This document shows, one piece after another, positions 24,245-40,473 of a stretch of 63,239 nt of DNA. Made by a program: the position numbers and the translations under genes. The DNA lies in contig PFDI01000004.1 of the NCBI GenBank assembly GCA_002772695.1, positions 326-63,564 of the forward strand. The letters are read 5' to 3'. The stretch comes from Candidatus Pacebacteria bacterium CG10_big_fil_rev_8_21_14_0_10_44_54 (GTDB lineage Bacteria > Patescibacteriota > Microgenomatia > UBA1400 > PJMF01). The notes beneath the pieces were generated by a model, which saw only the letters and a list, made by a program, of their open reading frames with translations, did not search any database and was not told where the DNA came from. Position 1 is the first letter of the stretch, and every line of letters begins with the position of its first letter.

Positions 24245-24256
24245 ATTCAGATTTAT

Positions 24257-24342: not shown

Positions 24343-24600
24343 GATTTGAGCTAGAACAAATGATGCCAGCATAACTCCAACCAGTGATAGTAATAATCCG
24401 CCATGAATCATCCATCCCACTTCACCAAGAGAATCAAACTGAGACTTAGAAAAAAAGATGATCATTTCAAAGGCCACTGCACAGAATCCAAAGAGCCTTA
24501 GATAGAGTGCCTGTTTATTGTTTTTCATATGTACTCATTATTGCTTTGATTCATAATAGAATAAAGCATCAAAATATGTTTATATATCAATATAATGGGT
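24258..24600. mobile_element. Mini-cassette 1 (339 bp core to core), one gene, no recombinase
   Basis: Bounded by GGGT cores of J1 and J2; its right end IKICLYINIMG resembles the LSR end FKLYLSENPTMG. Confidence 0.55.
24325..24528 (-). CDS. Small two-TM membrane protein (cargo of cassette 1)
   Basis: 67 aa with two hydrophobic segments; convergent with the J1 tail. Confidence 0.6.
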   Translation of the reverse strand: MKNNKQALYLRLFGFCAVAFEMIIFFSKSQFDSLGEVGWMIHGGLLLSLVGVMLASFVLAQILSGKK

Positions 24601-24651
24601 AGAGTTCGAGACGCCATTCGCACCATGTTCCAATACTACCAAAAATTATAG
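24596..24651 (+). other. Junction J2: att arm encoding an orphan LSR C-terminal tail
   Basis: ATG GGT AGA GTT CGA GAC GCC ATT CGC = MGRVRDAIRTMFQYYQKL*. Confidence 0.7.
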
Positions 24652-25215: not shown

Positions 25216-25305
25216 AGAGTACGGGAGCTTGTTAGGAAATTATACCAGTGCTACTTACTTGGTGAAAGTCAGTCAAATACTTCGAATGTTGCTTGCCTAG
25301 GTTGA
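25210..25305 (+). other. Junction J3 (attL of the 13.8-kb element) encoding the probable native LSR C-terminus
   Basis: GGT AGA GTA CGG GAG CTT GTT AGG = GRVRELVRKLYQCY...LG*; joins the LSR in frame via the GGGT core. Confidence 0.75.
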
Positions 25306-25398
25306 GAATACATCATTTTGATCGTGCTACCAGCATGCCTGTATTCAGTAAATTAGGATAAATCTATCAAAAAATGATAAAATCTGATAAATAAGAAT

Positions 25399-25875
25399 AT
25401 GAACAAATACAAATGGCTGGTCGTCTTTCTACTTTTATTAACCTTAGTCGGCATCCTATTTTTTCAAAAAAATAAGACCTCTGTGTTGATGGAGAACTCA
25501 TTGGATGATTCAGAGACTGAAATAACTGATGAGGCTTGGTGTGATAATGCAAACGAAGCTCAGACTTTTGAAAAACCAATCCCTGTTGTATGGACAGCAC
25601 GCTTTGATGGCTGTCTGGTCAGTTGTCAAGGAGCGTCATTTACAAAAGCCATGGATGATGGAAAATACCCTCGTTTTGCAGGCTATTACCCCGATACGAA
25701 AGGGGGTTATGACCCAGATGAGTTTAACCCAATACCTGAAAAGTATCAAAACAATGAACTGGTCTTAAAAATATCAGGGAATTGGATAGGTATTCAAGAT
25801 GATCATCCGCAAACTGTTTTTGATGGAAAATGCGTCCCTATAGTTGAGATAAAGCAAATAGAAATCTCAAACTAA
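25399..25875 (+). CDS. Membrane-anchored/secreted hypothetical protein
   Basis: N-terminal hydrophobic anchor, four Cys in the soluble part. Confidence 0.7.
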   Translation: MNKYKWLVVFLLLLTLVGILFFQKNKTSVLMENSLDDSETEITDEAWCDNANEAQTFEKPIPVVWTARFDGCLVSCQGASFTKAMDDGKYPRFAGYYPDTKGGYDPDEFNPIPEKYQNNELVLKISGNWIGIQDDHPQTVFDGKCVPIVEIKQIEISN

Positions 25876-25888
25876 TTATTTCAGCAAT

Positions 25889-26149
25889 TCAAAAAATCTG
25901 CAAATCCTCACCCATTGCAAATGTTCCTATCATAACGCTATCTTCAAAGGTTGAATCATCTTCTGCTTGATAACCACCAGCTTCAATAATCTCAGCTATT
26001 AAATCAGCTTCGGTAAGATCGGGCTGGTCTGCATTCTTTTCTAAATAGGCTGAAAAAAATACTTCAAAATCAACACCTGTAGTAGCCTCAACGGCTTCTT
26101 TGACAGCGACCATTAGCTCAGCTCCAGGCTCTTTGTCTTCGTTTGGCAT
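25889..26149 (-). CDS. Very acidic 86-aa protein (candidate DNA mimic); start reassigned to ATG 26149
   Basis: GGAGG RBS, ATG 1 nt after the upstream TAG; 22 D/E versus 3 K and 0 R. Confidence 0.7.
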   Translation of the reverse strand: MPNEDKEPGAELMVAVKEAVEATTGVDFEVFFSAYLEKNADQPDLTEADLIAEIIEAGGYQAEDDSTFEDSVMIGTFAMGEDLQIF

Positions 26150-26150
26150 A

Positions 26151-26675
26151 CTATGCACCTCCCTCGTTATTTTTTTCAGCATCATCACTTTTAGTTGAAG
26201 CAAACTGTGTAATCGTTTGTTCGCTTTGATAAAGTTTGCCAGCAATCCACCCCAACGCCTGAATCAAAAGAAACAGCACTTCTGCAAAAAAGTTCCGCAG
26301 GTAATACATACCCGTTTTCTCTCTGTAGTGAACTTCCGCTTCTTTATTTACTGGCATTACTGGTTTATCCACTTCTGTCCTTCTGGGTAGATTGATGCCG
26401 ATTCTGTGAGTCCCAGGAATGGGGGCTACAAGCTCAATTTTGCCAGTTGGTGAGGCGAGAAATAAGGCGATGTCTCTTGAAAGATTTTCAAAGTTTGAGA
26501 TTGGTTCACCCATGGCAATTTCTAGCTGAAATTCCAAGTGTTTTTCATGGAAATTGATCTCCATGACTCGAACTTTGATCCCGTGTGCAGCAAAGTTATG
26601 TTCTAACGAAGAAGCAAGCATCGGCACATTTTCAACTGGTTTGATAATTTTAGATTTTGAGGTTGATTTTTGCAT
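26151..26675 (-). CDS. Stand-alone FtsK alpha-domain protein with a C-terminal TM helix; start at ATG 26675
   Basis: LEHNFAAHGIKVRV..NLSRDIALFLA..VAPIPGTHRIGINLP matches the FtsK alpha pattern; no Walker A motif. Confidence 0.7.
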   Translation of the reverse strand: MQKSTSKSKIIKPVENVPMLASSLEHNFAAHGIKVRVMEINFHEKHLEFQLEIAMGEPISNFENLSRDIALFLASPTGKIELVAPIPGTHRIGINLPRRTEVDKPVMPVNKEAEVHYREKTGMYYLRNFFAEVLFLLIQALGWIAGKLYQSEQTITQFASTKSDDAEKNNEGGA

Positions 26676-26676
26676 A

Positions 26677-27429
26677 TTAGGTTTCATTGAGTATCTCCAA
26701 TACTTTATTAGCAAGCTCTCTTTTCTCAATCAAGAACTTGGCATACTTTGATTGATCGGGGCGATTCAGTCCCACAGTAAAAGTTCTCAGTCCTGGCTGT
26801 TTATTTTCATTAGCGGTCAGTTTCAAAAACTCTGGTGCAGGAATACAAAAAACGTGTTCATGGATGTCGCCCTGAGTGAGATCAAAGTAAACGAAAACCA
26901 TGAGCATCCGCCTTTTATTGATGATGTTTTTTTCTTTGACAGTTGATACAAAGCCGTTGTTTCTATCGCCAAAGGTTGATTTAACCTGGATATAGGCAAC
27001 TTCTAACACACCTCTTTTTTTTACGATAATATCAATACCCTCATCATCACTGATCGGTCTGTAGCAAGAAAGCCCAGTATCACCATAGAGAGTGATCAGC
27101 TCAGCAACTCTTGCCTCAGCAATGTCGCCCTTTTGCTTGGTGTTGAGGTCACTCGTGACACGATGTTTTACGATCTGAGCCTTGGCACTTACTGATTTTT
27201 GAGTACCCTCAGCCCGCAGACCATAAAATCCTGGCTCACTACGATAAAAAATAGAGCTATCTCCATTCTTTTGAATGTCCATCGAGATTCGGGCGTTCAT
27301 GGTAGCCCAAGGTGTTGATCCCTCTGACTGCAAGCCAAGTTTCAAGGCTCGTTCAGTTATTTCTTTGTAGTGAATTGGTTTTTTTGCTTCACTGATGACT
27401 CTTTGGGCGAGAGATAAAAATGTTTCCAT
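26677..27429 (-). CDS. HARE-HTH domain fused to a PD-(D/E)XK endonuclease
   Basis: AQRVISEAKKPIHYKEI..TPWATMNARIS..FYGLR; QKGDIAE, DDEGIDIIV, YIQVKS. Confidence 0.8.
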   Translation of the reverse strand: METFLSLAQRVISEAKKPIHYKEITERALKLGLQSEGSTPWATMNARISMDIQKNGDSSIFYRSEPGFYGLRAEGTQKSVSAKAQIVKHRVTSDLNTKQKGDIAEARVAELITLYGDTGLSCYRPISDDEGIDIIVKKRGVLEVAYIQVKSTFGDRNNGFVSTVKEKNIINKRRMLMVFVYFDLTQGDIHEHVFCIPAPEFLKLTANENKQPGLRTFTVGLNRPDQSKYAKFLIEKRELANKVLEILNET

Positions 27430-29342
27430 TAGACCCTTTCAATTACTTCATCCCCAGCGATGTTTCTGACTTTGATTCGCAAGGGTTTTTTGCTCATGGT
27501 GACTGTGCCATCCCAGAACTTCTTGGTTTGTTCGCCATCCACAATCATATAACCATTTTTATCAATCTTGATCTCGTGGTCAGATACCCATACACCGTCA
27601 GTATTGGTACAGTCCACACTGATAAACTCAATCAGCTCCAAGCCCTCATCACTGATCTCAATCCTTTTTTGGTTCGCCGTTTTCTTGCCATTGAACTCAG
27701 TAATTTTCTGAATCAAAACATCAGAGATGAAGCGGTCAAAAGCAATGGTGTGTTTGCCAGCTTGTTCTTTGACGGTGTACTCCACCACATCAGGACTGAC
27801 GATCAAATCAATCAGCTCTTTGAGGTCTTTGAAAACAAACTGAACGGGTTTACCATCCGCATCTCGCAAGTCATAGTCTTTTCTCATTTTGTCGATCTCT
27901 GCTTGACCAGTGATGTCCACGCTACACACCACTACTTTACTGATTCCATCCAACTTGGCGGTTTCGTCCATGATCTTGCTAAACAAAGAAGGGTTGAGAA
28001 TGGCTTGCCCTTTGTCTTTGAGGTTGGGTATCCAGCAAGGGCAGACTGTTCCTTTGTCAGTGATTGCACCAAACCAGAATGAGCCAAAGTCGTGCGTGGT
28101 AGTTAGTCCTGGGACGATGGTTGCAAGTTTATCCATTGTTTGCTGTGGGTTGCGGAACAGGTCGATACCATCCTTTATTTTGAGGATGTCAAAGCTCGCA
28201 CCTGCTTCTACAAAGCGGTCACGCATGGTCTGAATAGCATTGATACCCACATCGGCAGTGATAAACTTTCTACCCAGATCATGAGCGACTTTTGCGGTTA
28301 CGCCAGAACCACCGAAAAAGTCTACAACTACCAAGCCCTCATTGGAGCTAGCTTTGATGATGCGTTGGAGTAAGGCTTCTGGTTTTTGCGTGGCATAGTC
28401 AGTTTTTTCGCTTAGGTTTTTGGGGTCAACAGCCTTTATATTCCAAACAGAGTCAAGTGTATTTCCCTCTAATGCGAGGATAACATCGTTTTTTCCAGGT
28501 TTTCTGTGATTTTGTTTCACAAATCTATCATAGTAACCCTTGAATCGTGAGTCAGTTTCAGGATAATTTGCTCCCGTGATTTCGTTATTTTCATTTAGGT
28601 ATGAGTTCCACCGTGTGAAGTCGATAGTTTGCTCAACATTACTATCTTTCAGCAAGTTGAAAGAGTAGTCCGATGTTTTGGAGTAGAAAAAAATTACGTC
28701 ATGTTTTCTTGGAAAGTATGAAGATACCTGACCTTGATAGGTCTGATAATGCCATACAATTTCATTTCTAAAGTTCTCTTCACCAAACACTTCATCAAGA
28801 AGTACTTTTGCATAATGACCTATATGCCAGTCTAAATGGACATAGATACTAGCAGTATCACTCATCACTTCTTTGATTGCGAGCAATCTCTCATACAACC
28901 AGTTGAGGTAGTCTTCTTTCTGCCAAATATCACCGTACATGGTTTCTTCTAGAACTTGCAAGTCTTTGTTGTCAACTTCTTCACCTGCTTGAGATTGGAG
29001 TTTTGCTTGAGCTTCTTCTAGCTTGGCAACGAGTTTAGGATTTTGTCTGATATAGATTTTCTTGGCGTAATTAGCCCCACTTGCAAACGGTGGGTCAATA
29101 TAGACCAGATCAACCGTAATACTTTTCTCTTTTAGATAGGCACAGGCGTTGAGGCAGTCACCGTGAATGAGTAGGTTATCCTCAGACTTTTTACCTACTT
29201 TTTCGATCAGCTCAGTTTCAAAGTACGGCATCCCTTGCAGTTGAAAATCCTTAGCTGAGAGCTGGCGGTGGTATCGCAAGAATGGCAAGACAGCTTGTCC
29301 TCTCAGAGGTTCAACTTTATATGGAATGTATTTGATCGGCAT
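27429..29342 (-). CDS. mod: Type III R-M methyltransferase (Mod, beta-class adenine MTase)
   Basis: YIDPPF motif IV precedes DFFGGSG motif I; YATQKPE. Confidence 0.9.
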   Translation of the reverse strand: MPIKYIPYKVEPLRGQAVLPFLRYHRQLSAKDFQLQGMPYFETELIEKVGKKSEDNLLIHGDCLNACAYLKEKSITVDLVYIDPPFASGANYAKKIYIRQNPKLVAKLEEAQAKLQSQAGEEVDNKDLQVLEETMYGDIWQKEDYLNWLYERLLAIKEVMSDTASIYVHLDWHIGHYAKVLLDEVFGEENFRNEIVWHYQTYQGQVSSYFPRKHDVIFFYSKTSDYSFNLLKDSNVEQTIDFTRWNSYLNENNEITGANYPETDSRFKGYYDRFVKQNHRKPGKNDVILALEGNTLDSVWNIKAVDPKNLSEKTDYATQKPEALLQRIIKASSNEGLVVVDFFGGSGVTAKVAHDLGRKFITADVGINAIQTMRDRFVEAGASFDILKIKDGIDLFRNPQQTMDKLATIVPGLTTTHDFGSFWFGAITDKGTVCPCWIPNLKDKGQAILNPSLFSKIMDETAKLDGISKVVVCSVDITGQAEIDKMRKDYDLRDADGKPVQFVFKDLKELIDLIVSPDVVEYTVKEQAGKHTIAFDRFISDVLIQKITEFNGKKTANQKRIEISDEGLELIEFISVDCTNTDGVWVSDHEIKIDKNGYMIVDGEQTKKFWDGTVTMSKKPLRIKVRNIAGDEVIERV

Positions 29343-29354
29343 ATTATATTTCCT

Positions 29355-32222
29355 TTATGTTGTTGTGTTACTAAAGTAGTGATTGATTCTGTCTGTGATG
29401 GCTTGACGGTGGTAATCAAGGTCTTTGCCGTCTTCGAGATAAAGGAAGTCAAACGCTTTGGCATTGAGATCAACAAAGGTGTTTTCCATGAACTGTCTGA
29501 TGTCAGTAAAATCGTGAGCGAGGTGTGATCCTTTTGTTTCAATGATGAGTGTTTTGGCAATCTTGTTCCCTTTACGCTCAATCACTACGAAGTCGGGGGT
29601 GTACTGATCTTGAATCAGCTTCCACTGGTCATTGATTTTTTTGTAAATCTTGATTTTGAATGTAGAGAGGAAGCGGTCACCATTGAAGTAGACCTCAAGC
29701 TGGCTTTTCTGAAAGGCACTGAGGTTGAAGATATGTTCCAGAATCTTTCTCTCGAAGTCACTTGCCGTGAACTCGTATGGAATGTAGTGGAAAGAGCGGT
29801 CTTTGTACGTGATAGGGAGTTTAGACTGTTTGATCTCATCAATCTTGGCTTCAATTCCCGCAGAGAAAGTAGCGTCACTACCCATGGCAAGTTTCGTAGC
29901 TTCAAGCTGTTTGATTTTATCGCTCTCAGAGGCAGTGATGCCATCAATAGGTGTTTTTTGCTTGTCATAGTCAGCAATCTTATTGATGAAGTCAATGTTA
30001 TCGGGGTAGATTTTAGCTTTAGTTGAGATAGGGTTTTTGTTGATGTCAGCTACTAGCCAAGATACAGATTCAGGTTTGAGCGATTCGTGGACTCTCACCG
30101 CTGATTGTGGCGTAAAGCTCAAGTGAATAGCAGTAATGATCCTACTTAGAGAATATCCAGAGCGTAGCTCACCAGCTTGTGTCAGCAATCCATAGACATC
30201 AAAAAGACTTTTTCTATATTGATGTAGTTGGCTGTAAAATACTCCCCCAAAGGACGACTTGAAAATCAGATTGAGGAACTCAGAAAAGCTGAGTTTCTGG
30301 TACGCATAATCAAGCGGTGAATGGCTGACACTAGAAGTATCATCAAAGTCTAGCCCAGTTCTAGTGCTAGCTATCTCTGGCACGAAATATGGATTGTCTT
30401 TACTGGCTTTGAGCTTGGTAGTTAACTCAGTCAAAGCAGGTTCGGGGTTCGCCTCAACTACTTCATTCAATACCTCATATTCAAGAAGCAGTTGTTTGTA
30501 CTCTAGCGGTGGCAACTTGAGGTACTTTCTACGGTCAACCCGTAGTAAGGTAGGTTCTTCTTCCTTGCCTGCCTCGAACTCTTTGATGCTGATCTTGTGC
30601 TTATCACCCAGCTCTTTTTCCAGGTGGCGGTAGTTTGTTTGATTGAGGTAGATCAAGCCTGTTTCAGTTTGAGCATCATCTACTTCTCGCAAGCAACGGC
30701 ATGAGGTTTGCAACACCATGTTTTTTGGGCTGTCACCCTCACCAGACAACACTACACCCGTGAGCGACTGACAATCCCAGCCCTCTTTGCCGATTTGAAC
30801 CAGTAGAATGACCCGTTTATTAGAGTATGGGGTATCCAGCTTGCTAAACTCTAGGTCTGCTTCTTTATCAAGAGTATAGGTTTTACCTGACTTTGATTTC
30901 TTTGACTCACCGTAGTATTTGAAAACCTCAGAGGAATCTAAGCCTTTCTCAGCGTAGAAGTTCAATACAATAGGCATGACTTCTTCCTCTAATCGCTCGA
31001 TATTGGCACAGTAGATGGCGAGTTTCGGCTTCCTGCCGTCCTGGTAGGTCTTGTCATAAAACTCGGCGTAAAAGTCCTCTAAGCTGGCTTTGACGATGGT
31101 TTCAGTATGGCTAGAGAAGCTCTTGATAACGGGTTGTTTGAGAAAGTTTCGCACGCCATCTTTTAGCTCGTAGTGGTAAACCGTGCTAGGGATTTGATCG
31201 AGGGCAAGAGTAAGTGAACCAGCCGTTATCTTTCGTTTGAAGTACGGCGTGCCAGTAAAACCGATGATATTGATGGTGTTCCCCTGATTGAACTGGTTAT
31301 TGATGACGAACTTGAGCTTATTTTCCTCTTTTTGGATGTGATGCACCTCATCAATCAAGATGCTTAGATTTGGCACTTGGGCAAGTTTATTTCGTAATTC
31401 GTTTTCAAGATTGCTTTTTTCATCCCCGTTTACTTCAAATAGCGTTCCCTTGTAGGGGTCTTCTACTACCTTATCCAAGACAACTTTTTCGGCATTGGTG
31501 ACAAAGACATAGCCACTTGGGTTAGCCTGTTGCAAGCACTCTTGAACTTTACGAGCATTAGGGTTGTTGATTTTGTTGCTTCTTTTGGCGGTCTTAGCAA
31601 CATCTAACACCACGAACTTTATTTGCTTTTTGATTTTGGTGGCAATATCAACGGGCAGTATCCAGGTTGGATCAAAGCGTTCAATGCTCCGCAGAGATGG
31701 CACAACCGAGCTTTTTAGTCCACTCGGAGCAAAAATCAAGAAGTTCTTGGCGAAACGGTCATCAGTGTTATTGAGGTTGAAATACAAGTCGATATAGATC
31801 ATGGAAGCCATGACAAAGGTTTTGCCCGCTCCCATTGGCAAGCTCAATAAGACGTTAGAAATATGGTTATAGCCACCAAAGAGATCAACAAAAAAGCCCT
31901 CTAGCTCTTGGGGACTGGCTGTTTTGGCGAACTTCTCTAGCTTTTTGTTTTCCAACTCTTGAGAAATATGCACCAGCAGAGTTGTCAGGCTATCACCCTC
32001 TGTATCTGGGTAACGCTCTTTGAATACCACGACCAGCGGTTTATTGTCTGTCACACACTTGAGCCAAAGGTACACCTTGAGAGCCTCGATTTGGGCATCT
32101 CGGAGCTTTCCAGTAGCTTCAATATGCCTGAGGATGTACCCCGCAACTGAGTTCTTATTTTCTTTTTCGGCATCCGACCACTCGAATGCTCTACTGGTTA
32201 GGTAGTTTTTTATAATGTTCAT
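29355..32222 (-). CDS. res: Type III restriction enzyme Res subunit (SF2 helicase plus PD-(D/E)XK)
   Basis: LPMGAGKT, DEVHH, FTGTP, IGKEGWD, C-terminal YTPDF..IIETKG. Confidence 0.88.
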   Translation of the reverse strand: MNIIKNYLTSRAFEWSDAEKENKNSVAGYILRHIEATGKLRDAQIEALKVYLWLKCVTDNKPLVVVFKERYPDTEGDSLTTLLVHISQELENKKLEKFAKTASPQELEGFFVDLFGGYNHISNVLLSLPMGAGKTFVMASMIYIDLYFNLNNTDDRFAKNFLIFAPSGLKSSVVPSLRSIERFDPTWILPVDIATKIKKQIKFVVLDVAKTAKRSNKINNPNARKVQECLQQANPSGYVFVTNAEKVVLDKVVEDPYKGTLFEVNGDEKSNLENELRNKLAQVPNLSILIDEVHHIQKEENKLKFVINNQFNQGNTINIIGFTGTPYFKRKITAGSLTLALDQIPSTVYHYELKDGVRNFLKQPVIKSFSSHTETIVKASLEDFYAEFYDKTYQDGRKPKLAIYCANIERLEEEVMPIVLNFYAEKGLDSSEVFKYYGESKKSKSGKTYTLDKEADLEFSKLDTPYSNKRVILLVQIGKEGWDCQSLTGVVLSGEGDSPKNMVLQTSCRCLREVDDAQTETGLIYLNQTNYRHLEKELGDKHKISIKEFEAGKEEEPTLLRVDRRKYLKLPPLEYKQLLLEYEVLNEVVEANPEPALTELTTKLKASKDNPYFVPEIASTRTGLDFDDTSSVSHSPLDYAYQKLSFSEFLNLIFKSSFGGVFYSQLHQYRKSLFDVYGLLTQAGELRSGYSLSRIITAIHLSFTPQSAVRVHESLKPESVSWLVADINKNPISTKAKIYPDNIDFINKIADYDKQKTPIDGITASESDKIKQLEATKLAMGSDATFSAGIEAKIDEIKQSKLPITYKDRSFHYIPYEFTASDFERKILEHIFNLSAFQKSQLEVYFNGDRFLSTFKIKIYKKINDQWKLIQDQYTPDFVVIERKGNKIAKTLIIETKGSHLAHDFTDIRQFMENTFVDLNAKAFDFLYLEDGKDLDYHRQAITDRINHYFSNTTT

Positions 32223-32263
32223 TTTTTATACTTATATTTTAGTGCAAGAGTCTGACAAGAACC

Positions 32264-32443
32264 TTACATTTTTACTTTTCTTTTCTTGAGGAACTCATTG
32301 AGATCGTCCTCTTTGATCCTCAATTCCTGCTCTAGTTTATAGGCTGGAAGTCTTTTCGCCTTGATATAGCGGTAAATGGTCATCTTGCTCACTTTGAGAG
32401 CTTGGGCGACTTCTTCAATGGTGAGGAGAGTCTGTGTTTGCAC
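32264..32443 (-). CDS. Excisionase-family (HTH_17) DNA-binding protein, GTG start, 59 aa; not in ORF track
   Basis: MQTQTLLTIEEVAQALKVSKMTIYRYIKAKRLPAYKLEQELRIKEDDLNEFLKKRKVKM. Confidence 0.85.
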   Translation of the reverse strand: MQTQTLLTIEEVAQALKVSKMTIYRYIKAKRLPAYKLEQELRIKEDDLNEFLKKRKVKM

Positions 32444-32452
32444 ACTCTGATA

Positions 32453-32488
32453 ATATCACTTGTTCACATTTGTTTACAAGGGTGATAT
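32453..32488. promoter_or_regulatory. Candidate operator in the divergent promoter
   Basis: Inverted repeat ATATCAC...GTGATAT enclosing tandem TGTTCACA (32461) and TGTTTACA (32471), 10 bp apart. Confidence 0.45.
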
Positions 32489-32506
32489 AGTTTTCCACAT
32501 ATAAGT

Positions 32507-33673
32507 ATGAGCATAAAGTTTGATTGGTCTTACTTTATCCACATGGTAAAGCAAGACTTACTACTAGAATACCTTACTAAGGTCTGGCAACTAGACCTTA
32601 CGGTTGGTGATTTTGAAACAGAAGATGATCGAGTTGCCTTTTTACGAGCTGAGATCGAAAAATTAGCTACTGATCGGTTCGATGACATCCAGATTGATCT
32701 GACAAAGGTTCGCCAGCTATCAACCAAGCCAGGTGTGCAACGGCTCATTTTGATCGCTAACAATAGTAATCAGCAGGTTGACGACCCTTACGTTGACCTA
32801 AACGTCTACAATAGAGCCTTATTTTACCGAGTCAATTATCACGATATTTTCCAAACAGCCTACGTTTTGAACGAAGTACAACCCCGCAAAAAGAAGTTGC
32901 GACATGGTTTGAAGTCTGTGTCAGTCAAAAATCTCATGGGCAAGACTACCGAATTAGCTACTCAGATCAGCGAATACCTGACAAAAAACGAAAAAAGAGG
33001 TGAAGCCTGTAAAGTTGATAGTCACGATTTTGGTAGCTCAATCTGCTTCACCGCATACCCCACCAACTACCCTCAAGACTTACTCTTTTTTGATGGCGAG
33101 CAGTGGAAAAACGAGGTGAACAGACCTGGTTTTCAGATAACCTTTCTTTATTATCCAGAGGGCGGACGACTCGAAATTGACTGCCAGGGTAGCTGGCAGA
33201 AGAAACACGCCTTGATGCAGATTTTCAACACCGCTGTTTTGGAGAGCGATGTGCCAGTTCCGCTCTATCAGTTGCAATTCAACCTGGACAAATTAGTTGA
33301 AGACGGCTTTGAGATGGTGATTGACCCTCAAGATATGGGTGAAGAACCTCAACTCAAGTCAATTCGCCTCAAGAGAAGACACAGCAATACCCCAGAGCGG
33401 TACACCATCGAAATTGACAACGGTACTGGTGTTACGCCAATTAGAGATGCGATGAACCACCGTAGATTGACTTTGGAGTACTACGAAGTTGACCAGGCTA
33501 AGATCAGTTTCAAGTTTCCTGGTTTGCAAAAAACTGGCTGGGTTACAGTTGACTTATCACTGCCTGACGGCAATTCACCTGGGAGCGATGAAAAAGATGA
33601 AAAAGCCCAGAATTACCTTGAAAAATGGGGAGTTATCAGCCGTGAAGACGAATCCAGCCCATCTACTGACTGA
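32507..33673 (+). CDS. Hypothetical protein (388 aa), first gene of a coupled pair
   Basis: Long ORF; no catalytic motif recognised. Confidence 0.8.
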   Translation: MSIKFDWSYFIHMVKQDLLLEYLTKVWQLDLTVGDFETEDDRVAFLRAEIEKLATDRFDDIQIDLTKVRQLSTKPGVQRLILIANNSNQQVDDPYVDLNVYNRALFYRVNYHDIFQTAYVLNEVQPRKKKLRHGLKSVSVKNLMGKTTELATQISEYLTKNEKRGEACKVDSHDFGSSICFTAYPTNYPQDLLFFDGEQWKNEVNRPGFQITFLYYPEGGRLEIDCQGSWQKKHALMQIFNTAVLESDVPVPLYQLQFNLDKLVEDGFEMVIDPQDMGEEPQLKSIRLKRRHSNTPERYTIEIDNGTGVTPIRDAMNHRRLTLEYYEVDQAKISFKFPGLQKTGWVTVDLSLPDGNSPGSDEKDEKAQNYLEKWGVISREDESSPSTD

Positions 33674-34715
33674 GATGGTTCTACATCCCAGCACCTCTCT
33701 TTCTCAGCAGGAAGCTGACCAGTTTTTAGGTTCTCATCGTTCTTTTTTTCAAGATACCAGCATGATTGTGGACGCTCCCTCAAGAAAGTGGGCAAATTGT
33801 CTGAGTTGTGGTAAGACGCATGAGGTTACGCCCCTCAATGGACTGCTTATATTGTCTTGCTCAGAGCAAGGGGTTGAGGATGTCATTATCACGGCTGATG
33901 AGCTAAAGAGTGTTCGATTCAATCTTAGCGGTTTTCACTCTTGGCTACAAAGTCTGTTTTCTTTGCAAGGCAACATCGAAGCCTCTGAGGACAAGGTCTT
34001 ACTTGGTCAGGGGACGGTGAATGGCAAGCAAAGGCTGTTTATTTTCAGTCAGGATAACTCGCCTCAAGCCAGAGTGAAGCTATGCCAAGATCACCGAGCC
34101 AACCAACCAGTTATTTTGTACCTCAGTACTACCCTCAACAATCATAATCAGGGCTATGACATCAACTTGACTGAGTACCTGGTAGTACAAGAAAACAATC
34201 TGAGTATTGATGTCAGCTCGGCGTTGGGTGTGATTGAAGACACTGTCCTGCCTTTGGAGAACGACACCCAGCTAACCTCTAGCAATTTTGCTATCGAGTT
34301 GAAGCTCACGGATGACAAAATTGTGCTAACTGGCACAGCTCTTGGTAGTTCATATCCAGCGTTCAAAGCCAAGAAAAAGCGAAGCACTGCCATATCCAGA
34401 CTATTGAGAACCCTACTCAAGTTGCATGAAAGCGACAAAGAAACGACCCCGAAAACATATAAGCAAAGTGTGCTTGAGGCGAACTACATTGACCCTCGCA
34501 AAAACAAACAAAATGACCTTGCACAAATGGATCTCAGTCAAGATAAGCGACCACTGAGCAACCTCTGCTCATCCTTATTGCCATACTTTTTCACACATCG
34601 GTATGACAAAGACGATGGCTTAGTGATCGAGTTCAAATCAGCCATCTCTCAAGAGGACTGGAACGGTCTTTCAGACTCAGAAAAGCAAAAGATTTTGGCT
34701 TCAAAGGCTGAATAG
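33642..34715 (+). CDS. Hypothetical protein with an N-terminal CxxC..H..C putative Zn finger; GTG 33642 (or ATG 33675) start
   Basis: GGGAG upstream of GTG; CLSCGKTHE..LSC; overlaps the upstream gene's stop. Confidence 0.75.
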   Translation: MKTNPAHLLTEMVLHPSTSLSQQEADQFLGSHRSFFQDTSMIVDAPSRKWANCLSCGKTHEVTPLNGLLILSCSEQGVEDVIITADELKSVRFNLSGFHSWLQSLFSLQGNIEASEDKVLLGQGTVNGKQRLFIFSQDNSPQARVKLCQDHRANQPVILYLSTTLNNHNQGYDINLTEYLVVQENNLSIDVSSALGVIEDTVLPLENDTQLTSSNFAIELKLTDDKIVLTGTALGSSYPAFKAKKKRSTAISRLLRTLLKLHESDKETTPKTYKQSVLEANYIDPRKNKQNDLAQMDLSQDKRPLSNLCSSLLPYFFTHRYDKDDGLVIEFKSAISQEDWNGLSDSEKQKILASKAE

Positions 34716-34739
34716 CCAACCTCGTCAATCCCTATTTCC

Positions 34740-34810
34740 TGCATTTAGTTGCATTTAGCAACGCCCCTTAGTTGTGTTCTTCTGTGATTTTTGCGTTTAC
34801 GTGCATTTAG
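34740..34810 (+). repeat. Two pairs of 9-bp direct repeats at 10-bp spacing upstream of the DUF5659 operon
   Basis: TGCATTTAG at 34740, 34750 and 34802; TGCGTTTAC at 34792. Confidence 0.6.
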
Positions 34811-34875
34811 CGTTTTGGTTCAAAAATCGCACTTATCATTGACCCATCAAACAAAAATGAGTCAAAAGGATAAGC

Positions 34876-35124
34876 ATGAAAAACGCACACAAATACTTTA
34901 CCACCTACGACCTAAACCTATCAGCAGTATTGGTTTCGCAAGGTTTTACTTTAGAAGAAATCGAAAAATCTGGCGGTACTAAAGGCCTCTTTTACTTCAA
35001 AAAGAGCGACAAACTTCTAGTAGTCATTGATAGCTACTGGAAAAACCAACTCCAAATCTCTCCGCAAACGCTTTTTAGCAGTTTGAAGTCTATCAAAAAT
35101 CGCTTGTATAGCGATTGGAAGTAA
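34876..35124 (+). CDS. DUF5659-like small protein
   Basis: FTTYDLNLSAVLVSQGF..FYF..YWKNQLQISP..LKSIKNRLY. Confidence 0.7.
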   Translation: MKNAHKYFTTYDLNLSAVLVSQGFTLEEIEKSGGTKGLFYFKKSDKLLVVIDSYWKNQLQISPQTLFSSLKSIKNRLYSDWK

Positions 35125-35129
35125 AAGCC

Positions 35130-35324
35130 ATGTTGAGCCGTGCCTCAGTGGCGAAGTTCCAGCACATCTACTTCCAAGAGTACGGCATTGAGCTGGATGA
35201 GCAGACAGCCTACGAGCTGGCGAATAACCTCGTCAACCTGTACCGAAGTGTCTACTTACCAGACACAAAAAATATAAGTAAGCAGTATGAAAAAAACACA
35301 TCAACTCAGAAGAATCAAAGCTAA
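35130..35324 (+). CDS. Small helical protein of LSR elements (candidate directionality factor)
   Basis: MLSRASVAKFQHIYFQEYGIELDEQTAYELANNLVNLY; a homologue is present in the tRNA-Gly islet. Confidence 0.7.
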   Translation: MLSRASVAKFQHIYFQEYGIELDEQTAYELANNLVNLYRSVYLPDTKNISKQYEKNTSTQKNQS

Positions 35325-35706
35325 GAAGTCCTACTCCTCTATGGAGTTGGCTAACTTACTTGGCGTTCATGTCCAAACCGTCCGAACTTGGGCAAGCAAT
35401 GGTCTTGCTCCGCTGAGTTCCGAAGTCCATCGACCACTATTTTTAGGTCAGACCGTCAAATCTTATCTCTCGCAACAACAAAATGCCCGCAAGGTGAAGC
35501 TCCAAGCTGGTGAGTTTTACTGCCTACGGTGTCGAAAAGCAGTTACACCCGCTTTAGTGACCGAGGTAGATCGCCACGTCCTCATTGGCAAGCAAAAAGA
35601 TTCGATTTTACTCACCGCTCACTGTCCACAGTGCGATTGCCCTGTCAACAAGTTTTCTAGCCGAATATCAACTACACAGAAAGGAAAATATGCTACTAAC
35701 GCATAA
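35287..35706 (+). CDS. HTH DNA-binding protein with a C-terminal 4-Cys Zn ribbon
   Basis: YSSMELANLLGVHVQTVRTWASNGL; YCLRCRK...HCPQCD. Confidence 0.8.
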   Translation: MKKTHQLRRIKAKKSYSSMELANLLGVHVQTVRTWASNGLAPLSSEVHRPLFLGQTVKSYLSQQQNARKVKLQAGEFYCLRCRKAVTPALVTEVDRHVLIGKQKDSILLTAHCPQCDCPVNKFSSRISTTQKGKYATNA

Positions 35707-36034
35707 ACGATATGCCGTATCAGGTGATTGGTATCAACCCAAAGCCCAGCTTCTCAGCAAGCCAAGCGTGGTGCTGGCAGAGTACCACGAAACATCATCA
35801 AGCTCTGGCGATTGGAGCGGGTACTTTTTGCAGAAAATCGGGCAAGCCTACCACCTGATTTTATTCACCCAAGAGAACCTTTACCCAGAGGACGGCTTTG
35901 AGCTGGTGACGGGCGAGGTAGTCCATACTTTCAAATCTGAGCCAAACAAATCCGATGTTGCAAAGGTCATTATCTCAGTACTTGAACACCCTCGTAATCA
36001 CTCACTTAGTAATAGCGCAGAATTGAAAGGATAA
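35690..36034 (+). CDS. Hypothetical protein; start reassigned to ATG 35690
   Basis: AAGGA RBS; overlaps the upstream gene. Confidence 0.6.
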   Translation: MLLTHKRYAVSGDWYQPKAQLLSKPSVVLAEYHETSSSSGDWSGYFLQKIGQAYHLILFTQENLYPEDGFELVTGEVVHTFKSEPNKSDVAKVIISVLEHPRNHSLSNSAELKG

Positions 36035-36036
36035 CT

Positions 36037-36177
36037 ATGTTGAATCACGCTCAATTATCATTTTTAGCTGTACTGCTTTGGGTTGGAATAACCTATCTAG
36101 CAACAGCCAAGAAAGAGTTCCCGTGGCACTTAGTAATTTTGGCAGTAATTATCACGCTTGAATTGCTTTCGAAATAG
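36037..36177 (+). CDS. 46-aa two-TM small membrane protein; not in ORF track
   Basis: MLNHAQLSFLAVLLWVGITYLATAKKEFPWHLVILAVIITLELLSK; AAAGGA RBS; fills the gap between two genes exactly. Confidence 0.6.
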   Translation: MLNHAQLSFLAVLLWVGITYLATAKKEFPWHLVILAVIITLELLSK

Positions 36178-36186
36178 AAAGGAAAT

Positions 36187-37302
36187 ATGTCAAAAATCAA
36201 AGACAAAAACGAACGTATCAAACGCAAATATCTCAACTGGCTACAAGAGGCTGAGGGCTTCTCAGAGAAATCAATCACAGCAGTAGAAACAGCCCTCTGG
36301 AAGTATGAGGAGTTCAGTAGAGATTCAGACTACAGCACGTTCAATCACAAAATCGCTGAGCAGTTCAAGAAGCACCTGGTGAACAACAAAAACAGAATAA
36401 GCAACAAGACACTCTCGCTAAGATCGCAATATCACGTTCTCAGGCACGTTCGCAATTTCTTGACTTGGCTATCTGGTCAAGTTGGGTATAAGTCAAGAAT
36501 CTCGACTTACGATGTCCAGTACTTGCAGTTGAGCAAGAAAGATCGGCGGGTGGCGACCTCTGCCTCACTTCCCAAGTACCCAACCCTTGAGCAGATCAAA
36601 CAGCTTTGTAGCTTTTCAGTTCAAACTGAAATTGATCAGCGGGATCGGGCGTTGATAGCCTTTACTGCTCTAACAGGTATGCGGGATCAGGCGATTGTTA
36701 CCTTACCACTGGGTTGTTTTGACCAAGAGAAAATGCTGGTGCAACAGCTTCCTAGCAAAGGTGTTCAGACTAAGTTCAGCAAGGATATTTACACCACCCT
36801 TTTTCATGTTGATGAAACGCTCGTGAGCTACTTCTTGAAGTGGTATGACTATCTGAAAACTGAAAAGCACTTTGGGCTTGATGATCCAATGTTTCCAAGT
36901 ACGGCGGTTGGTTTTGTTGGTGAGAATCATCATGCTTTTACCTCTATGGGTGTCAGCAAAGAGTTTTGGGCAGATACAAACCCGATGCGTAAGATTTTTC
37001 AAGCTCGAAGCAAACAAGCGAACGTACCTTACTACACCCCCCATAAGTTTAGGCACTTTATCATCAATGAAGCCCAGAAGCACATCACTAGCATTGAACA
37101 ACTCAAGGCACTAAGCCAGAATCTCGGTCATGAAAATATCAGCACGACCTTTCACGGCTATGGTGCAATTGATACTTACAGAGTCAATGAGTTAGTTAGC
37201 TCGATTGATTTTACAGGACTCCCTCAGAACCGAGCTGAAGAAGCTCAGCTTGAGAGAATTGCTGATCTTGTGGCTAAAAAATTGGGTAGAACTGAGCTAT
37301 AA
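36187..37302 (+). CDS. Tyrosine recombinase/integrase
   Basis: LTGMR (R), TKFSK (K), HKFRH (HxxR), LGH, catalytic Y in FHGYG. Confidence 0.9.
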   Translation: MSKIKDKNERIKRKYLNWLQEAEGFSEKSITAVETALWKYEEFSRDSDYSTFNHKIAEQFKKHLVNNKNRISNKTLSLRSQYHVLRHVRNFLTWLSGQVGYKSRISTYDVQYLQLSKKDRRVATSASLPKYPTLEQIKQLCSFSVQTEIDQRDRALIAFTALTGMRDQAIVTLPLGCFDQEKMLVQQLPSKGVQTKFSKDIYTTLFHVDETLVSYFLKWYDYLKTEKHFGLDDPMFPSTAVGFVGENHHAFTSMGVSKEFWADTNPMRKIFQARSKQANVPYYTPHKFRHFIINEAQKHITSIEQLKALSQNLGHENISTTFHGYGAIDTYRVNELVSSIDFTGLPQNRAEEAQLERIADLVAKKLGRTEL

Positions 37303-37309
37303 TGATTGT

Positions 37310-37395
37310 GTTGACCCAGCTTGCAATGGTGCATAAAAAAAGGCAGTTCTGCCAGCGGATCGCATGATTGTTGGGTCAACCAGAACTGTCTTTTT
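37310..37395 (+). promoter_or_regulatory. Structured leader between the two recombinase genes
   Basis: AAAAAGGCAGTTCTG (37337-37351) pairs with CAGAACTGTCTTTTT (37381-37395); GTTGACCCAGC (37310-37320) pairs with GTTGGGTCAAC (37370-37380). Confidence 0.55.
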
Positions 37396-37397
37396 AT

Positions 37398-39080
37398 ATG
37401 AGAATAAGAAAAACACTTACTACCACTAGGTCACGCAAATCTGGACTAAAGAAACAGAATCGGTACATTTTATACGCCCGTAAATCTACTACCTCGGAAG
37501 ATCGTCAAGTCGCCTCTATTGATTCCCAAATTGAAGTTATGACAGAAGTGGCTCGTGAGCATGACCTCGAAATCGTTGAGGTACTCAGCGAAGCAGGTTC
37601 AGGCTTCAAGATAGGTAGGACAGCGTTCAATGCCATGATCGAGAAGATCGAAAATGGTGAAGCAGACGGTATCATTGTCTGGAAGCTCTCTCGTCTTTCC
37701 CGCAACCCTGACGATGCAGGTAAGATCATGGGCTTACTACAGCGGGGTGAAATCAAGCATATTCGAACAGTTGACCGCAACTGGTATCCAGAAGACAACG
37801 TGATGATGATGTACGTTGAGTTTGGTATGACTAACCAATTCAGCCGTGATCTGAGTTCGGATACTCGCCGAGGTTTAGTCAAGAAAGCTGAGCGTGGTTG
37901 GTTGCCAAACGCTATTCTCCCGCTTGGGTATATGCACAGTCCATACAAGAAGTTAGGCGATGAGGAAATTATCATTGATGAAAACCGCTATTTCTTGATC
38001 CAAGAGGGTTTGAAGTTGGTAGCCTCTGGACAGCAAACACCAGTTGAAGCTCATGGCTATTTAGTTAGTCAAGGTGTTGTGGGAAAAAGAAGCGAGGCGT
38101 TACCCAAGAGTACTTGGTACAAAATGCTGGTTGAACCACTGTATGCGGGTACTTTTGAGTATCCAATCGGAAGCGGTCAATTTTACGAATCCAAAGCACC
38201 CAGAGCTATCGAGCCAACTGAGTATGATGCTATTCAAGTAGTTCTAGGAAGAAAAGATAAGCCACGACCAAAGCGACACTTTTTGCCGTACACAGGTTTG
38301 ATGAAGTGTGGCGAGTGTGGTTGCTCTATCACTGCGGAGAAGAAACAAAAAGTGCAAAAGAATGGCAATGTTCATCACTATGTTTATTACCGTTGTACAA
38401 AGAAAAAGGGTGACTGTGGTCAACCTTGTACGAATGTTGATGTACTGGAAAAGCAGTACAAGTCCATTCTGAAACGCATCAAAATCCCACCTGCCTTTCA
38501 CGAATGGGCAATTGATGAAATCAAACTTGACCAAGAAAAAGTGGTCAGGGATCGTGACTTGAGCCTTGAGCGAGCCAGAAATAACTATGATGACTGCCTA
38601 GCTGAAATTGATAACTTGGTGAAGAAATACTTAGACGGGAAAGTGCCAGAAGATTACTATGATCGCAACCTAGCCAAGCTCAACAAAAATAAGAAGATAC
38701 TAGCGAAAATCCTAGAGGGTATTGATAAAAGTGTTGATGAGAACTTGCAAGAGTTGGATCAAGATCTCGACTTTGCCGTGACAGCTAGAAGACGCTTCAA
38801 CAAAGGTGACGATCATAAACGCCGAGAGATTATCTCGTACTTAGGATCGAACCTTACCCTGACTGATCACACACTAGGCATAGAGTTGAAAAAACCACTA
38901 AAACTGGTTGCAGAAATCGCCAAAGAGGTCAATGAAGCTGTGCAAAGGTTTGAACCACTGGAAAATGCGGATAATTCGGAACAATTCAAACTATATTTGT
39001 CTGAAAATCCTACAATGGGTGGTATACCGGATTCGAACCGGCGACCTCCGCTGCCACAGAGCGGCGCTCTAACCAACTGA
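37398..39080 (+). CDS. Large serine recombinase (resolvase + recombinase + Zn ribbon + coiled coil); last ~20 codons are antisense tRNA-His
   Basis: YARKST (catalytic Ser), EDRQ, SRLSRN, PLGY, CGECG..YYRC..C; ends MGGIPDSNRRPPLPQSGALTN*. Confidence 0.95.
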   Translation: MRIRKTLTTTRSRKSGLKKQNRYILYARKSTTSEDRQVASIDSQIEVMTEVAREHDLEIVEVLSEAGSGFKIGRTAFNAMIEKIENGEADGIIVWKLSRLSRNPDDAGKIMGLLQRGEIKHIRTVDRNWYPEDNVMMMYVEFGMTNQFSRDLSSDTRRGLVKKAERGWLPNAILPLGYMHSPYKKLGDEEIIIDENRYFLIQEGLKLVASGQQTPVEAHGYLVSQGVVGKRSEALPKSTWYKMLVEPLYAGTFEYPIGSGQFYESKAPRAIEPTEYDAIQVVLGRKDKPRPKRHFLPYTGLMKCGECGCSITAEKKQKVQKNGNVHHYVYYRCTKKKGDCGQPCTNVDVLEKQYKSILKRIKIPPAFHEWAIDEIKLDQEKVVRDRDLSLERARNNYDDCLAEIDNLVKKYLDGKVPEDYYDRNLAKLNKNKKILAKILEGIDKSVDENLQELDQDLDFAVTARRRFNKGDDHKRREIISYLGSNLTLTDHTLGIELKKPLKLVAEIAKEVNEAVQRFEPLENADNSEQFKLYLSENPTMGGIPDSNRRPPLPQSGALTN

Positions 39081-39092
39081 GCTAATACCACC
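39018..39092 (-). tRNA. tRNA-His(GUG) with G-1; integration target
   Basis: G-GTGGTAT/ATACCAC-C, CCGCT-CT-GTG-GC-AGCGG anticodon arm, TTCGAAT. Confidence 0.95.
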
Positions 39093-39122
39093 AGATTTGG
39101 GGTATTATAGACTAAGCTGTCT

Positions 39123-40472
39123 ATGCTGAAAAGTCGGGTGCTTACCATACTACTACTGTTGTGTTGGTTGTTTTGCGGTATCGTCGCGACGTTGGCAGGA
39201 TTTTCTAGTTTTTTTTACTCCTGGCTTTGGATGGTACTACTGTTTCCATCAGGTTTATTTCTGCTTGTTGCTTGGCGGGTATTGCGGCAGTTTTTCAAAT
39301 TACCTCGATTAGAAAAACTGCTTTTTGCTCTGGTTTTTTTTATTTTGTTGCTACATTTTTTACAAGTATTTGTGCCAGAAACAGGTTTTGATGCGCTCTG
39401 GTATCACTTGCCGCTTGCTCAGTTATTGAGTGAAAACCACCAATTTATTTATTCACCAGAGCTATATCAGAGCGCCAATCCCCAGTTTGCCGATAGTATT
39501 TTCGCGCTTGGATTTGTAGCTGCAGGTGGTTTGGGCACAAAGCTTGTTGCGTTTAGTTTTGCTACGACACTGCTTTTGGTTTTGTATCAGGTTGCTCAGA
39601 TATTTTTGGGTCGCACTTGGTCATTGTTTGCGGTCCTCGCGGTAAGTTTATTTCAAGTAGTCTCGTGGCAAGCTGGTAGTTTCTATATTGATATAGCCAA
39701 AGCCGTTTTTGATTTGTCGGCGGTTTGGTTGGTGCTTGAGAGTTTTTTTGTGAGCGAGCAGAAAAATAAACAGCGGTACCTGCTTGCCGCTGCGCTTGTC
39801 TTTTCTGCTTCTGCAGCAAGTAAAGCGTTTTCAATTTTGTTATTGCCTAGCATAATGTTTAGTTTAGTCTTAGCTGTACCGAAGCTGCGAGCTAGCATGT
39901 TGGTTATACCTATTTTGGCATTAGTTTTGCTAGCTCTGCCGTTTTATCTTTTTTCATTTCAAAACACTGGTTCACTTTTCTTTTCTACGATAGTGCAGGC
40001 GGATCAGTTGTCAGTGTTCGAGTATGTGGTGCGACAAGTTTTGCGGTTTCCGTTTTTTTTCATTAACTTATTTTTTACGAGAGATTATACTTCCCCACTT
40101 TTGGGATTATTGCCATTGGCAATGTACTTTTTGCGAAAACAAATTTGGCAAAACAAGCAGCTGCAAATTCTGTTATTTGTCACTGTCAACCAACTGGCAA
40201 TTTGGTGGCTTGTGCCTCCACTTTCAACGCGCTACGGCTTGGCGGGGTTTATAACAGGCTTGATCCTTGTGTTAGTTTGGCTGTCTCAGCAAAAACAAAA
40301 TCGATTGTTACCGTTGCTTGTATTAGTCACCCTGATTTTTTTACTTCCTCGCTTGGTTGTTGCCAAACGATCACTGGCTTACTTGCTCGGTGGACAAACT
40401 GAATTTGAGTACGTCAAACAATTTACAGATGACAATAACGCCTGGCTACTTGACGCTTGGTATCATGAGTAA
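39123..40472 (+). CDS. Polytopic GT-C-like glycosyltransferase
   Basis: About 11-12 TM segments; GFDALWYHLP luminal loop; YIDIA. Confidence 0.65.
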   Translation: MLKSRVLTILLLLCWLFCGIVATLAGFSSFFYSWLWMVLLFPSGLFLLVAWRVLRQFFKLPRLEKLLFALVFFILLLHFLQVFVPETGFDALWYHLPLAQLLSENHQFIYSPELYQSANPQFADSIFALGFVAAGGLGTKLVAFSFATTLLLVLYQVAQIFLGRTWSLFAVLAVSLFQVVSWQAGSFYIDIAKAVFDLSAVWLVLESFFVSEQKNKQRYLLAAALVFSASAASKAFSILLLPSIMFSLVLAVPKLRASMLVIPILALVLLALPFYLFSFQNTGSLFFSTIVQADQLSVFEYVVRQVLRFPFFFINLFFTRDYTSPLLGLLPLAMYFLRKQIWQNKQLQILLFVTVNQLAIWWLVPPLSTRYGLAGFITGLILVLVWLSQQKQNRLLPLLVLVTLIFLLPRLVVAKRSLAYLLGGQTEFEYVKQFTDDNNAWLLDAWYHE

Positions 40473-40473
40473 G

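Follow-up and report, generated by a model that had tools for sequence, protein, structure and literature searches.

We analysed a stretch of 63,239 nucleotides (hereafter the window) of contig PFDI01000004.1 from Candidatus Pacebacteria bacterium CG10_big_fil_rev_8_21_14_0_10_44_54, in which the gene for a large serine recombinase (LSR) runs directly into a tRNA-His gene on the opposite strand. Very probably, the 13.8-kb island that ends at this junction was inserted at the tRNA-His 3' end by its own LSR, with the attachment site attP lying in the 3' end of the LSR gene, and the isoforms of the enzyme in the two states probably differ. In the proposed scheme, attP within the LSR gene would consist of a P arm encoding ...S-E-N-P-T-M, a crossover in a GGGT core at the next codon and a P' arm formed by the first ~9 tail codons. 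Integration would move these tail codons (the last 10-50 codons across the family) to the far attL, 13.8 kb off at a junction termed J3, and would fuse the LSR gene to antisense tRNA, giving a 560-aa protein with a new tail. The LSR/tRNA layout is family-wide, in what is apparently a large and undescribed integrase family.

Attachment site and junctions in relatives

By its domains, fold and right-arm attachment (att) geometry, the window enzyme is a bona fide LSR. A Pfam scan detected a Resolvase domain (PF00239, residues 34-177, E 1.6e-21) and a Zn_ribbon_recom domain (PF13408, E 1.1e-7), and gave no match in the window LSR to the recombinase domain PF07508, which is recorded for many homologues. 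Residues R38, S40, R84 and R109, of which R38 and S40 are catalytic, and the zinc-ribbon residues C314, C317, C343 and C350 are invariant in the homologue alignment (A1). The AlphaFold2 (AF2) model of a free-form homologue, P0013, contains long paired helices (360-407 and 413-464) and matched the SPbeta (E 3e-20), Bxb1, phiC31 and LI integrases over its full length in Foldseek.

In the integrated state, the open reading frame (ORF) of the LSR has the C-terminus ...ENPTMGGIPDSNRRPPLPQSGALTN* and is antisense tRNA from the codon at 39018 on, such that its final 21 codons are antisense tRNA-His; after ...ENPTM-G it follows the antisense of the acceptor stem, T-arm, anticodon arm and D-arm to its end, ...LSENPTMGGIPDSNRRPPLPQSGALTN*. 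The sequence GGGTAGAGTACGG occurs in two exact copies in the window, at 24258 (J1) and 25212 (J3), with 0.01 expected by chance, and a third, diverged copy of the repeat (65% identical) lies at 24594 (J2). The initial annotation had proposed that a join at GGGT to J3 would be in frame and would release a 13,805-bp circle, and our computed join reproduced both statements: joining 39020 to 25216 yields ...ENPTMGRVRELVRKLYQCYLLGESQSNTSNVACLG*, a free-form LSR of 570 aa from the ATG (560 aa when integrated), and the circle carries the predicted attP CCTACAATGGGTAGAGTACGG. The free-circle tail begins GRVRELVRKLYQCY..., and the integrated tail is unrelated to it and proline-rich. The description of the junction sequences in the initial annotation was thus right in all its parts. 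The crossover maps to the place suggested earlier, as homology to two related elements stops exactly at 39020 and the J3 tail is like that of one of them, L001 (14 of the first 15 residues identical). The identity block shared by attL and attR is short, 4 bp (GGGT) for J3 and 4-7 bp over the loci compared. The attR site (window 38995-39040) is nearly dyad-symmetric, AAAATCC-N8-GT-N8-GGATTCG, with the LSR codons S-E-N-P mirroring the tRNA T-arm at approximately attB-type spacing. This symmetry was rejected as a guide to the central dinucleotide, as the GGA/TCC mirror positions favour GT (39019-39020) and the TA positions favour GG.

Restoration of the tRNA 3' end by excision had also been put forward. 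The sequence is as stated, since the integrated tRNA-His ends ATACCAC-C-CA-TT and with the J3 left flank would end ATACCAC-C-CCA, but we rejected this as a functional clue. CCA is not encoded by any of the window's 7 other tRNA genes (1-74, 292-364, 1768-1839, 11498-11572, 11595-11678, 12933-13006 and 40473-40547), so that the organism must add it enzymatically, nor would it be restored by the left flanks of J1 and J2; elsewhere, it is present in only about half of 17 tRNA-His 3' halves of identical sequence. A promoter-like sequence (TTTTCA-17-TATAAT) precedes tRNA-His; promoter- and terminator-like consensus matches were no more frequent than in shuffled sequences. The nearest terminator-like hairpin on the minus strand lies ~470 nt inside the LSR gene, with none beside the tRNA-His 3' end. 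In the unoccupied relative L092, tRNA-His is followed by CCA and at once by a hairpin and T-run. Once the island is integrated, tRNA-His transcription may accordingly continue in antisense into the LSR gene's 3' end.

The P arm, conserved family-wide as ..TC(T/A)(G/C)AAAATCC-N7, was found in nearly identical form in three states in independent contigs, namely as attP (L001), fused to tRNA-His, and joined to non-tRNA DNA (L010). In L001, an ENA contig with an LSR 85% identical to that of the window, the junction is the predicted attP: P arm, core and P' arm are continuous and in frame (GAAAATCCCGTAATGGGTAGAGTACGGCAACTTGTTAG...), the tail begins GRVRQLVRKLYQCY... and no tRNA is present. Six further loci (L002, L003, L004/L005, L011, L013 and L014) have the P arm joined to different tRNA-His genes at one nucleotide, AATGGGT being followed there by G.... 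L010 holds an 84%-identical copy of the island, whose homology ends at window position 39020, where the LSR ORF enters unrelated non-tRNA DNA; this insertion site is probably a secondary (pseudo-attB) site. At this locus (L010 9930-10160), the ORF runs on for ~70 unrelated codons (GPLPRNTSVVV...), and the B' side retains only TACC at the tRNA-arm position. The in-frame attP of L001, the stop of homology at 39020 and the family-wide pattern together bear out the central proposal of the initial annotation, that the att site of the LSR splits the enzyme's own gene, whose C-terminus is exchanged on integration. A search for the empty site in closely related genomes returned only the distant syntenic L092 (66-68% identity), and the ancestral attB was not recovered. 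About ten contigs (L005, L025, L028, L030, L060, L067, L078, L082 and others) break off at the LSR/tRNA junction or no more than a few dozen bases from it, which is the expected behaviour of an assembly graph if populations hold more than one neighbour for one arm.

A protein search gave 1652 matches, of which the named ones are Patescibacteria, and tail classes were assigned from the 120 best cluster representatives. A survey of the tails carried by homologous LSRs had been suggested at the outset; antisense-tRNA peptides (..xDSNxRPPxPQxGALTN-like) were found in 41 of the 120 and a stop within 3 codons of the junction in 47 (together 88/120), next to 11 free-type tails, 9 others and 12 fragments. 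The short ...MGG forms were considered as free or truncated genes, a reading that we rejected: in L002, L003 and L004 they are integrated, the TGA being supplied by the antisense acceptor stem. A scan of one genome per GTDB species yielded 582 confirmed relatives and 80 loci kept, and all loci combined came to 92. At 53 of these 92 loci, the LSR ORF meets the 3' end of a tRNA on the minus strand and stays open into it, and the tRNAs concerned are His, Gln, Asn, Lys, Ser, Ala, Arg, Ile and Gly. More attL sites were located in L076, L031, L040 and L019 at distances of 8.8-10.6 kb upstream of the integrated LSR, again carrying P' tails in frame. Chance is ruled out by the recurrence of the same junction architecture in dozens of independent contigs.

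The family is mainly found in Patescibacteria, with other members labelled Omnitrophota, Elusimicrobia, Margulisiibacteriota and others. Records labelled 'uncultured Pseudomonadales' or 'Gammaproteobacteria' (L011, L013, L014, L093-L098 and L104-L106) carry the LSR family or the same tRNA-His, and L011 and L104 also hold genes in synteny with the window, 64-72% identical; in other respects, the window is similar to Candidatus Pacebacteria (L092). These labels on metagenome-assembled genome records look doubtful.

The geometry of the arms was compared by numbering from tRNA position 73, the base with which the codon following the anchor codon xTG begins. In the B' arm, the T-loop TTCGAACC occupies nt 15-22 in essentially all loci, and P' arms carry GTTMGAACC, TTCAGAAC or TTCGAACC at nt 19/20-27, which places the T-loop-like motif 5 bp further out in P' (nt 20-27) than in B'. 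A position weight matrix (PWM) derived from the B' T-loop (start at nt 13) scored highest at nt 18 in 10 of 15 P' arms, and the summed score at this offset was reached by 0 of 2000 shuffles. Both arms share TAC.GGA at nt 8-14. In described LSR sites, the zinc-ribbon-domain motif lies at positions 16-24 of attP half-sites and 11-19 of attB half-sites, a 5-bp shift (Rutherford 2013, PMC3783163). By this analogy, the zinc-ribbon domain most likely reads the universal T-loop TTCGAACC and the recombinase domain the acceptor stem, which would explain the family's moves among tRNA species. In the outward direction, P arms read GGATTTTCAGAC, GGATTTTGAGAG or GGACTTTGAAC and mirror the T-arm at approximately B-type distance, and the best PWM position was the mirrored B-type start in 26 of 44 P arms. 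Among the left-hand arms, the P arm is thus B-type-like and the B arms are without a consistent motif; the J3 left arm carries CCGGTTCGAG at approximately P-type distance, which the other left arms do not. The free-form site resembles a hybrid of a B-type P arm and a P-type P' arm.

Table 1. Features of the tRNA-His island and its surroundings, in window coordinates
Feature	Position	Strand	Remarks
J1, older P' arm with tail frame	24259..24342	+	GRVREAVRNLLNQKN...*; directly after the stop of a VIT1 gene
J2, second older P' arm	24598..24651	+	GRVRDAIRTMFQYYQKL*; ATTCGCACC at nt 19-27
Core GGGT at attL (J3)	25212..25215	.	partner of 39017-39020, 13,805 bp away
P' arm and detached LSR tail codons	25213..25305	+	GRVRELVRKLYQCYLLGESQSNTSNVACLG*; zinc-ribbon-domain (ZD)-type motif GTTAGGAAA at nt 19-27
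Integrated 13.8-kb island	25216..39020	.	84%-identical element in L010
FtsK_alpha-domain ORF	26151-26729		island cargo
HARE-HTH/PD-(D/E)XK protein	26677-27429		island cargo, beside the restriction-modification (R-M) pair
Type III R-M Mod (N6_N4 methylase)	27429-29342		island cargo
Type III R-M Res (ResIII helicase-nuclease)	29355-32222		island cargo
Weak HTH_17/MerR-like ORF	35287-35706		island cargo
Tyrosine recombinase (Phage_integrase)	36187..37302	+	directly upstream of the LSR gene
LSR gene, integrated (prophage) isoform	37398..39080	+	560 aa from ATG 37398; 570 aa from TTG 37368
P arm of att site	38995..39017	+	LSR codons ...L-S-E-N-P-T-M; outward reading GGATTTTCAGAC, mirror image of tRNA T-arm
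Common core GGGT at attR	39017..39020	.	L001 and L010 homology ends at 39020; attP, attR and attL compared
tRNA-His(gtg)	39017..39091	-	ARAGORN; acceptor 3' strand and T-arm form the B' arm
Promoter-like TTTTCA-17-TATAAT upstream of tRNA-His	39104..39132	-	consensus match only

The exchanged C-terminus and competing readings

Free tails share the consensus [DE]-x-[VFI]-R-[TK] at codons +5 to +9, with a D-V/F-R-T core. This peptide is the translated P' motif, and part of the tail conservation is therefore a constraint on the DNA, which the initial annotation had not anticipated. In the close clade (L001, L123, L124, L125 and J1-J3), three arginines are kept through different codons (AGA/CGA, CGG/AGG/CGT/CGA and AGA/CGC/AGG), and all 7 nucleotide changes in these codons are synonymous. 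Conservation in this clade extends past the ~27-nt half-site as L/M-Y/F-x-x-Y. Similarly, L073 and L089 have bodies 66% identical and tails 45% identical over 53 aa without a frameshift, and the bodies and tails of P0051 and P0055 are 77% and 46% identical, again without a frameshift. The AF2 model of P0013 (mean predicted local distance difference test score, pLDDT, 85.6) shows three C-terminal helices, the last of which (533-551) starts at the junction with pLDDT 84-88; in the model of the window's integrated isoform (mean pLDDT 76.1), residues 551-570 fall below 50 and the preceding helices drop to 55-73. Based on the synonymous arginine codons, the conservation past the site and the difference between the two models, we infer that the P'-encoded segment is a real protein segment, modelled as a terminal alpha-helix present only in the free state. 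Since this structured helix is predicted in the free form only, the activity, stability or directionality of the enzyme is probably not the same in the free and the prophage isoform.

Several results weigh against this account of the site and its isoforms. The crossover dinucleotide (GG or GT) lies inside GGGT at a position that 4-7 bp of identity do not fix. An attP closely related to the window element is represented by a single contig (L001), and a degenerate scan with AAAATCCNNNNAATGGGTAGAGT of the metagenome_contigs and genome_contigs collections returned 16 matches, all attributable to chance and with no LSR upstream. The B-type spacing of the P arm is not predicted by the canonical LSR model and is confounded by the coding constraint on S-E/Q-N-P. 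As to the tail itself, its best-conserved part (D-V/F-R-T) coincides with the DNA motif presumed to be bound by the enzyme, free tails range from 10 to >50 aa (up to 54) and that of L042 stops right after the motif. Prophage forms cut at ...MGG* are common in genes that are otherwise intact, which implies that the tail is not needed for gene maintenance. Lastly, the two AF2 models came from runs on different alignments and have unequal overall confidence (85.6 vs 76.1), which makes their comparison only indicative.

The strongest competing explanation, which we place somewhat short of an even chance, is that the tail swap is a neutral by-product, with attP overlapping the 3' end of the LSR gene for compactness and both isoforms acting alike. 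It agrees with the exact mapping of the conserved tail peptide onto the TTCGAACC-like motif at nt 20-27, with the wide range of free-tail lengths (10-54 aa) and with prophage tails that are arbitrary in length and sequence, from 1 to >40 residues and often ending after 1-2 codons; moreover, 28 C-terminal residues of the SPbeta integrase are disordered in cryo-electron microscopy maps (PMC11722253). However, a site conserved for its DNA alone sits poorly with 7 of 7 arginine-codon changes being synonymous, with conservation beyond the half-site, including the 45% tail identity over 53 aa of L073 and L089, and with a terminal helix predicted confidently in the free form only.

A real functional switch between the LSR isoforms is given about one chance in three. 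Our leading guess, drawn by analogy with IntX of the phage Mx8, is that the prophage enzyme would be less integration-competent or differently directed. A bolder and improbable version would have the P'-encoded terminal helix act as a built-in, detachable directionality factor. The hybrid free-form site resembles canonical attL/attR, which normally needs a recombination directionality factor (RDF), and the helix-bearing free isoform would then be required for integration. Integration would remove the helix and create the nearly symmetric, attB-like attR (AAAATCC-N8-GT-N8-GGATTCG), on which the prophage isoform, now lacking the helix, would carry out the reaction in the opposite direction with no separate RDF. 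This version also includes mobilisation in trans, in that the same enzymes may move recombinase-less single-gene units such as J1-J2, J2-J3 and the tandem arms of L076 and L019; if true, small cassette arrays would be built beside tRNA genes.

The preferred reading, in which the LSR inserts its own island, also has to be set against the tyrosine recombinase encoded directly upstream, an obvious rival that the initial annotation had left out of account. This enzyme could be the true integrase and the LSR gene merely hold its attP, as the repressor gene of mycobacteriophage BPs does, a reading that we regard as very unlikely. Tyrosine integrases are the usual agents of insertion at tRNA 3' ends (PMC4383910), some loci show up to 7 bp of core identity, a weak excisionase-like (HTH_17) ORF is close by and the gene pair is kept throughout the close clade, where the tyrosine recombinase is always directly upstream of the LSR (window and L001-L018, at least 49% identity). 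Nevertheless, an iterated hidden Markov model search found the tyrosine recombinase in 23 loci only, with nothing convincing in the remaining loci at E up to 10, and most tRNA-fused LSR loci are without one within 10 kb upstream. The junction falls at the same LSR codon throughout the family, over 33-96% identity and nine tRNA species, the 5-bp displacement of the motif between P' and B' is specific to LSRs, and no displaced or duplicated tRNA 3' fragment was found at attL J3, where only the 4 bp of GGGT are shared. Because the tyrosine enzyme is missing from most tRNA-fused loci and the arms show the 5-bp offset, the LSR, not its neighbour, is the predicted integrase. For the tyrosine recombinase of the close clade, possible roles suggested by the gene order are dimer resolution, a second integration system or help in excision. 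Least probable of all, by a little, is a fixed and decaying remnant whose LSR read-through would be an accident of one old insertion and J1-J3 unrelated repeats, for although the segments flanking J1 and J2 are very short and lack a recombinase and scans of two collections did not find the attP of the exact element, the LSR ORF, its catalytic residues and the detached J3 tail frame are all intact, a near-identical attP exists in L001, an 84%-identical element occupies a different site in L010, and ten contigs break at or near the junction as heterogeneous populations would.

Island cargo and tandem arms

Judged by its gene content, the element is a small integrative island with defence cargo in a Patescibacteria genome: it encodes a type III R-M pair with an adjacent HARE-HTH/PD-(D/E)XK protein (Table 1), and no phage structural genes were found in it.

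To the left of the island, the P' arms of J1, J2 and J3 stand in tandem (window 24255-25215), and each unit starts with an in-frame G-R-V-R tail. The J1-J2 unit (339 bp) holds one 67-aa membrane-like ORF on the minus strand and the J2-J3 unit (615 bp) one MOSC-domain ORF (24646-25161, minus strand), neither with a recombinase; these short units may be decayed islands or units mobilised in trans. By eye, the P' arm of J2 looked dyad-symmetric to the left arm of J3; an inverted-repeat tool did not report this symmetry, and we count it as weak. Tandem attL-like P' arms also occur in L076 (927 and 2858) and L019 (2989 and 5331). The attL of L040 (2752) comes directly after what is left of an LSR P arm (TAAGGCGCAAAAG), suggesting that one tRNA received insertions in succession.

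A further array was observed in L006 (10001-15136; also L007-L009), where an intact LSR with a free-type tail (P0055, an identical protein on 19 contigs) lies 3.3 kb from a tRNA-His gene to which a 99-aa remnant of another LSR (..CTIWGGWRGSNP) is fused. The locus is a tandem array, and its outer LSR retains a P'-type tail in the integrated state.

Relation to known recombinases

Serine integrases targeting tRNA genes were said in 2015 not to be known (PMC4383910), serine recombinases of integrative and mobilizable elements are said to insert within genes, and a large LSR discovery survey does not mention tRNA (PMC10083194). In the open-access literature, we found no report of attP inside an LSR ORF or of Patescibacteria LSRs at tRNA genes. 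The targeting of tRNA 3' ends, in at least nine tRNA species, offers a natural series for the study of how LSR specificity is reprogrammed. The coding is dual, as the enzyme's own predicted binding site forms its last codons, and each recombination would rewrite the enzyme, which makes the family a natural experiment on the LSR C-terminus and directionality, an active question in the field. For annotation, gene callers will give at least three apparent length classes for one protein, set by integration state alone.

Canonical LSRs (LI/A118, Bxb1, phiC31 and SPbeta SprA) have the same resolvase, recombinase, zinc-ribbon and coiled-coil parts, short sites and a small core, and, like the right arms described here, a zinc-ribbon motif whose place in attP is 5 bp outward of that in attB. 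Their attP, however, lies outside the integrase ORF and their targets are usually protein-coding genes, whereas here attB is a tRNA 3' end, attP is coding and the P arm looks B-type in spacing. Serine recombinases at tRNA genes, described as rare, include those of phiRSM1 (tRNA-Ser) and of Mycobacterium AICEs (integrative conjugative elements of actinomycetes; tRNA-Leu), for which the portion of the source available to us reports no attP-ORF overlap or tail exchange (PMC3218068). Islander-type tRNA islands have a tyrosine integrase and a displaced tRNA 3' fragment, and the window island departs from them in both agent and fragment.

The analogues offered in the initial annotation fared unequally: the SSV1/pNOB8 type works alike, though with a tyrosine enzyme, the mycobacteriophage BPs type does not apply, as the gene cut here is the recombinase, and Mx8 had been missed. 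In mycobacteriophage BPs, which uses a tyrosine integrase, integration truncates the repressor gene at attP and yields a state-specific isoform, the active and stable repressor; in the window, by contrast, the recombinase cuts its own gene, and no repressor stands at the junction. In the SSV1/pNOB8-type archaeal integrases, the int gene spans attP and is partitioned on integration, as is the window LSR (PMC4383910, PMC8371274), but these tyrosine enzymes are split into two large, presumably inactive parts, whereas in the LSR the last 10-50 residues are exchanged and the domains stay intact.

A precedent for C-terminal control of direction comes from synthetic integrase-RDF fusions, in which a small helical directionality factor on the LSR C-terminus is reported to switch the preferred reaction (PMC5737554); in the RDF SprB, the C-terminal helix is the essential part (PMC11722253). 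Those fusions are engineered, and an RDF-like action of the natural P'-encoded helix would be pure conjecture by analogy. The closest bacterial precedent for the window LSR is Mx8 IntP/IntX, where attP likewise lies inside the integrase coding sequence and integration changes the protein: as far as a review summarises the work, the recombinant gene gives an altered, not an inactivated, product (PMC6070905, citing Tojo 1996, Magrini 1999). Mx8 is also listed among integrases that extend across attP (PMC4383910). It differs in its tyrosine chemistry, its other att architecture and its restriction to a single phage, whereas the window system is that of an LSR in a broad family, and the part swapped here is, as modelled, a short terminal helix that would double as the enzyme's own binding site.

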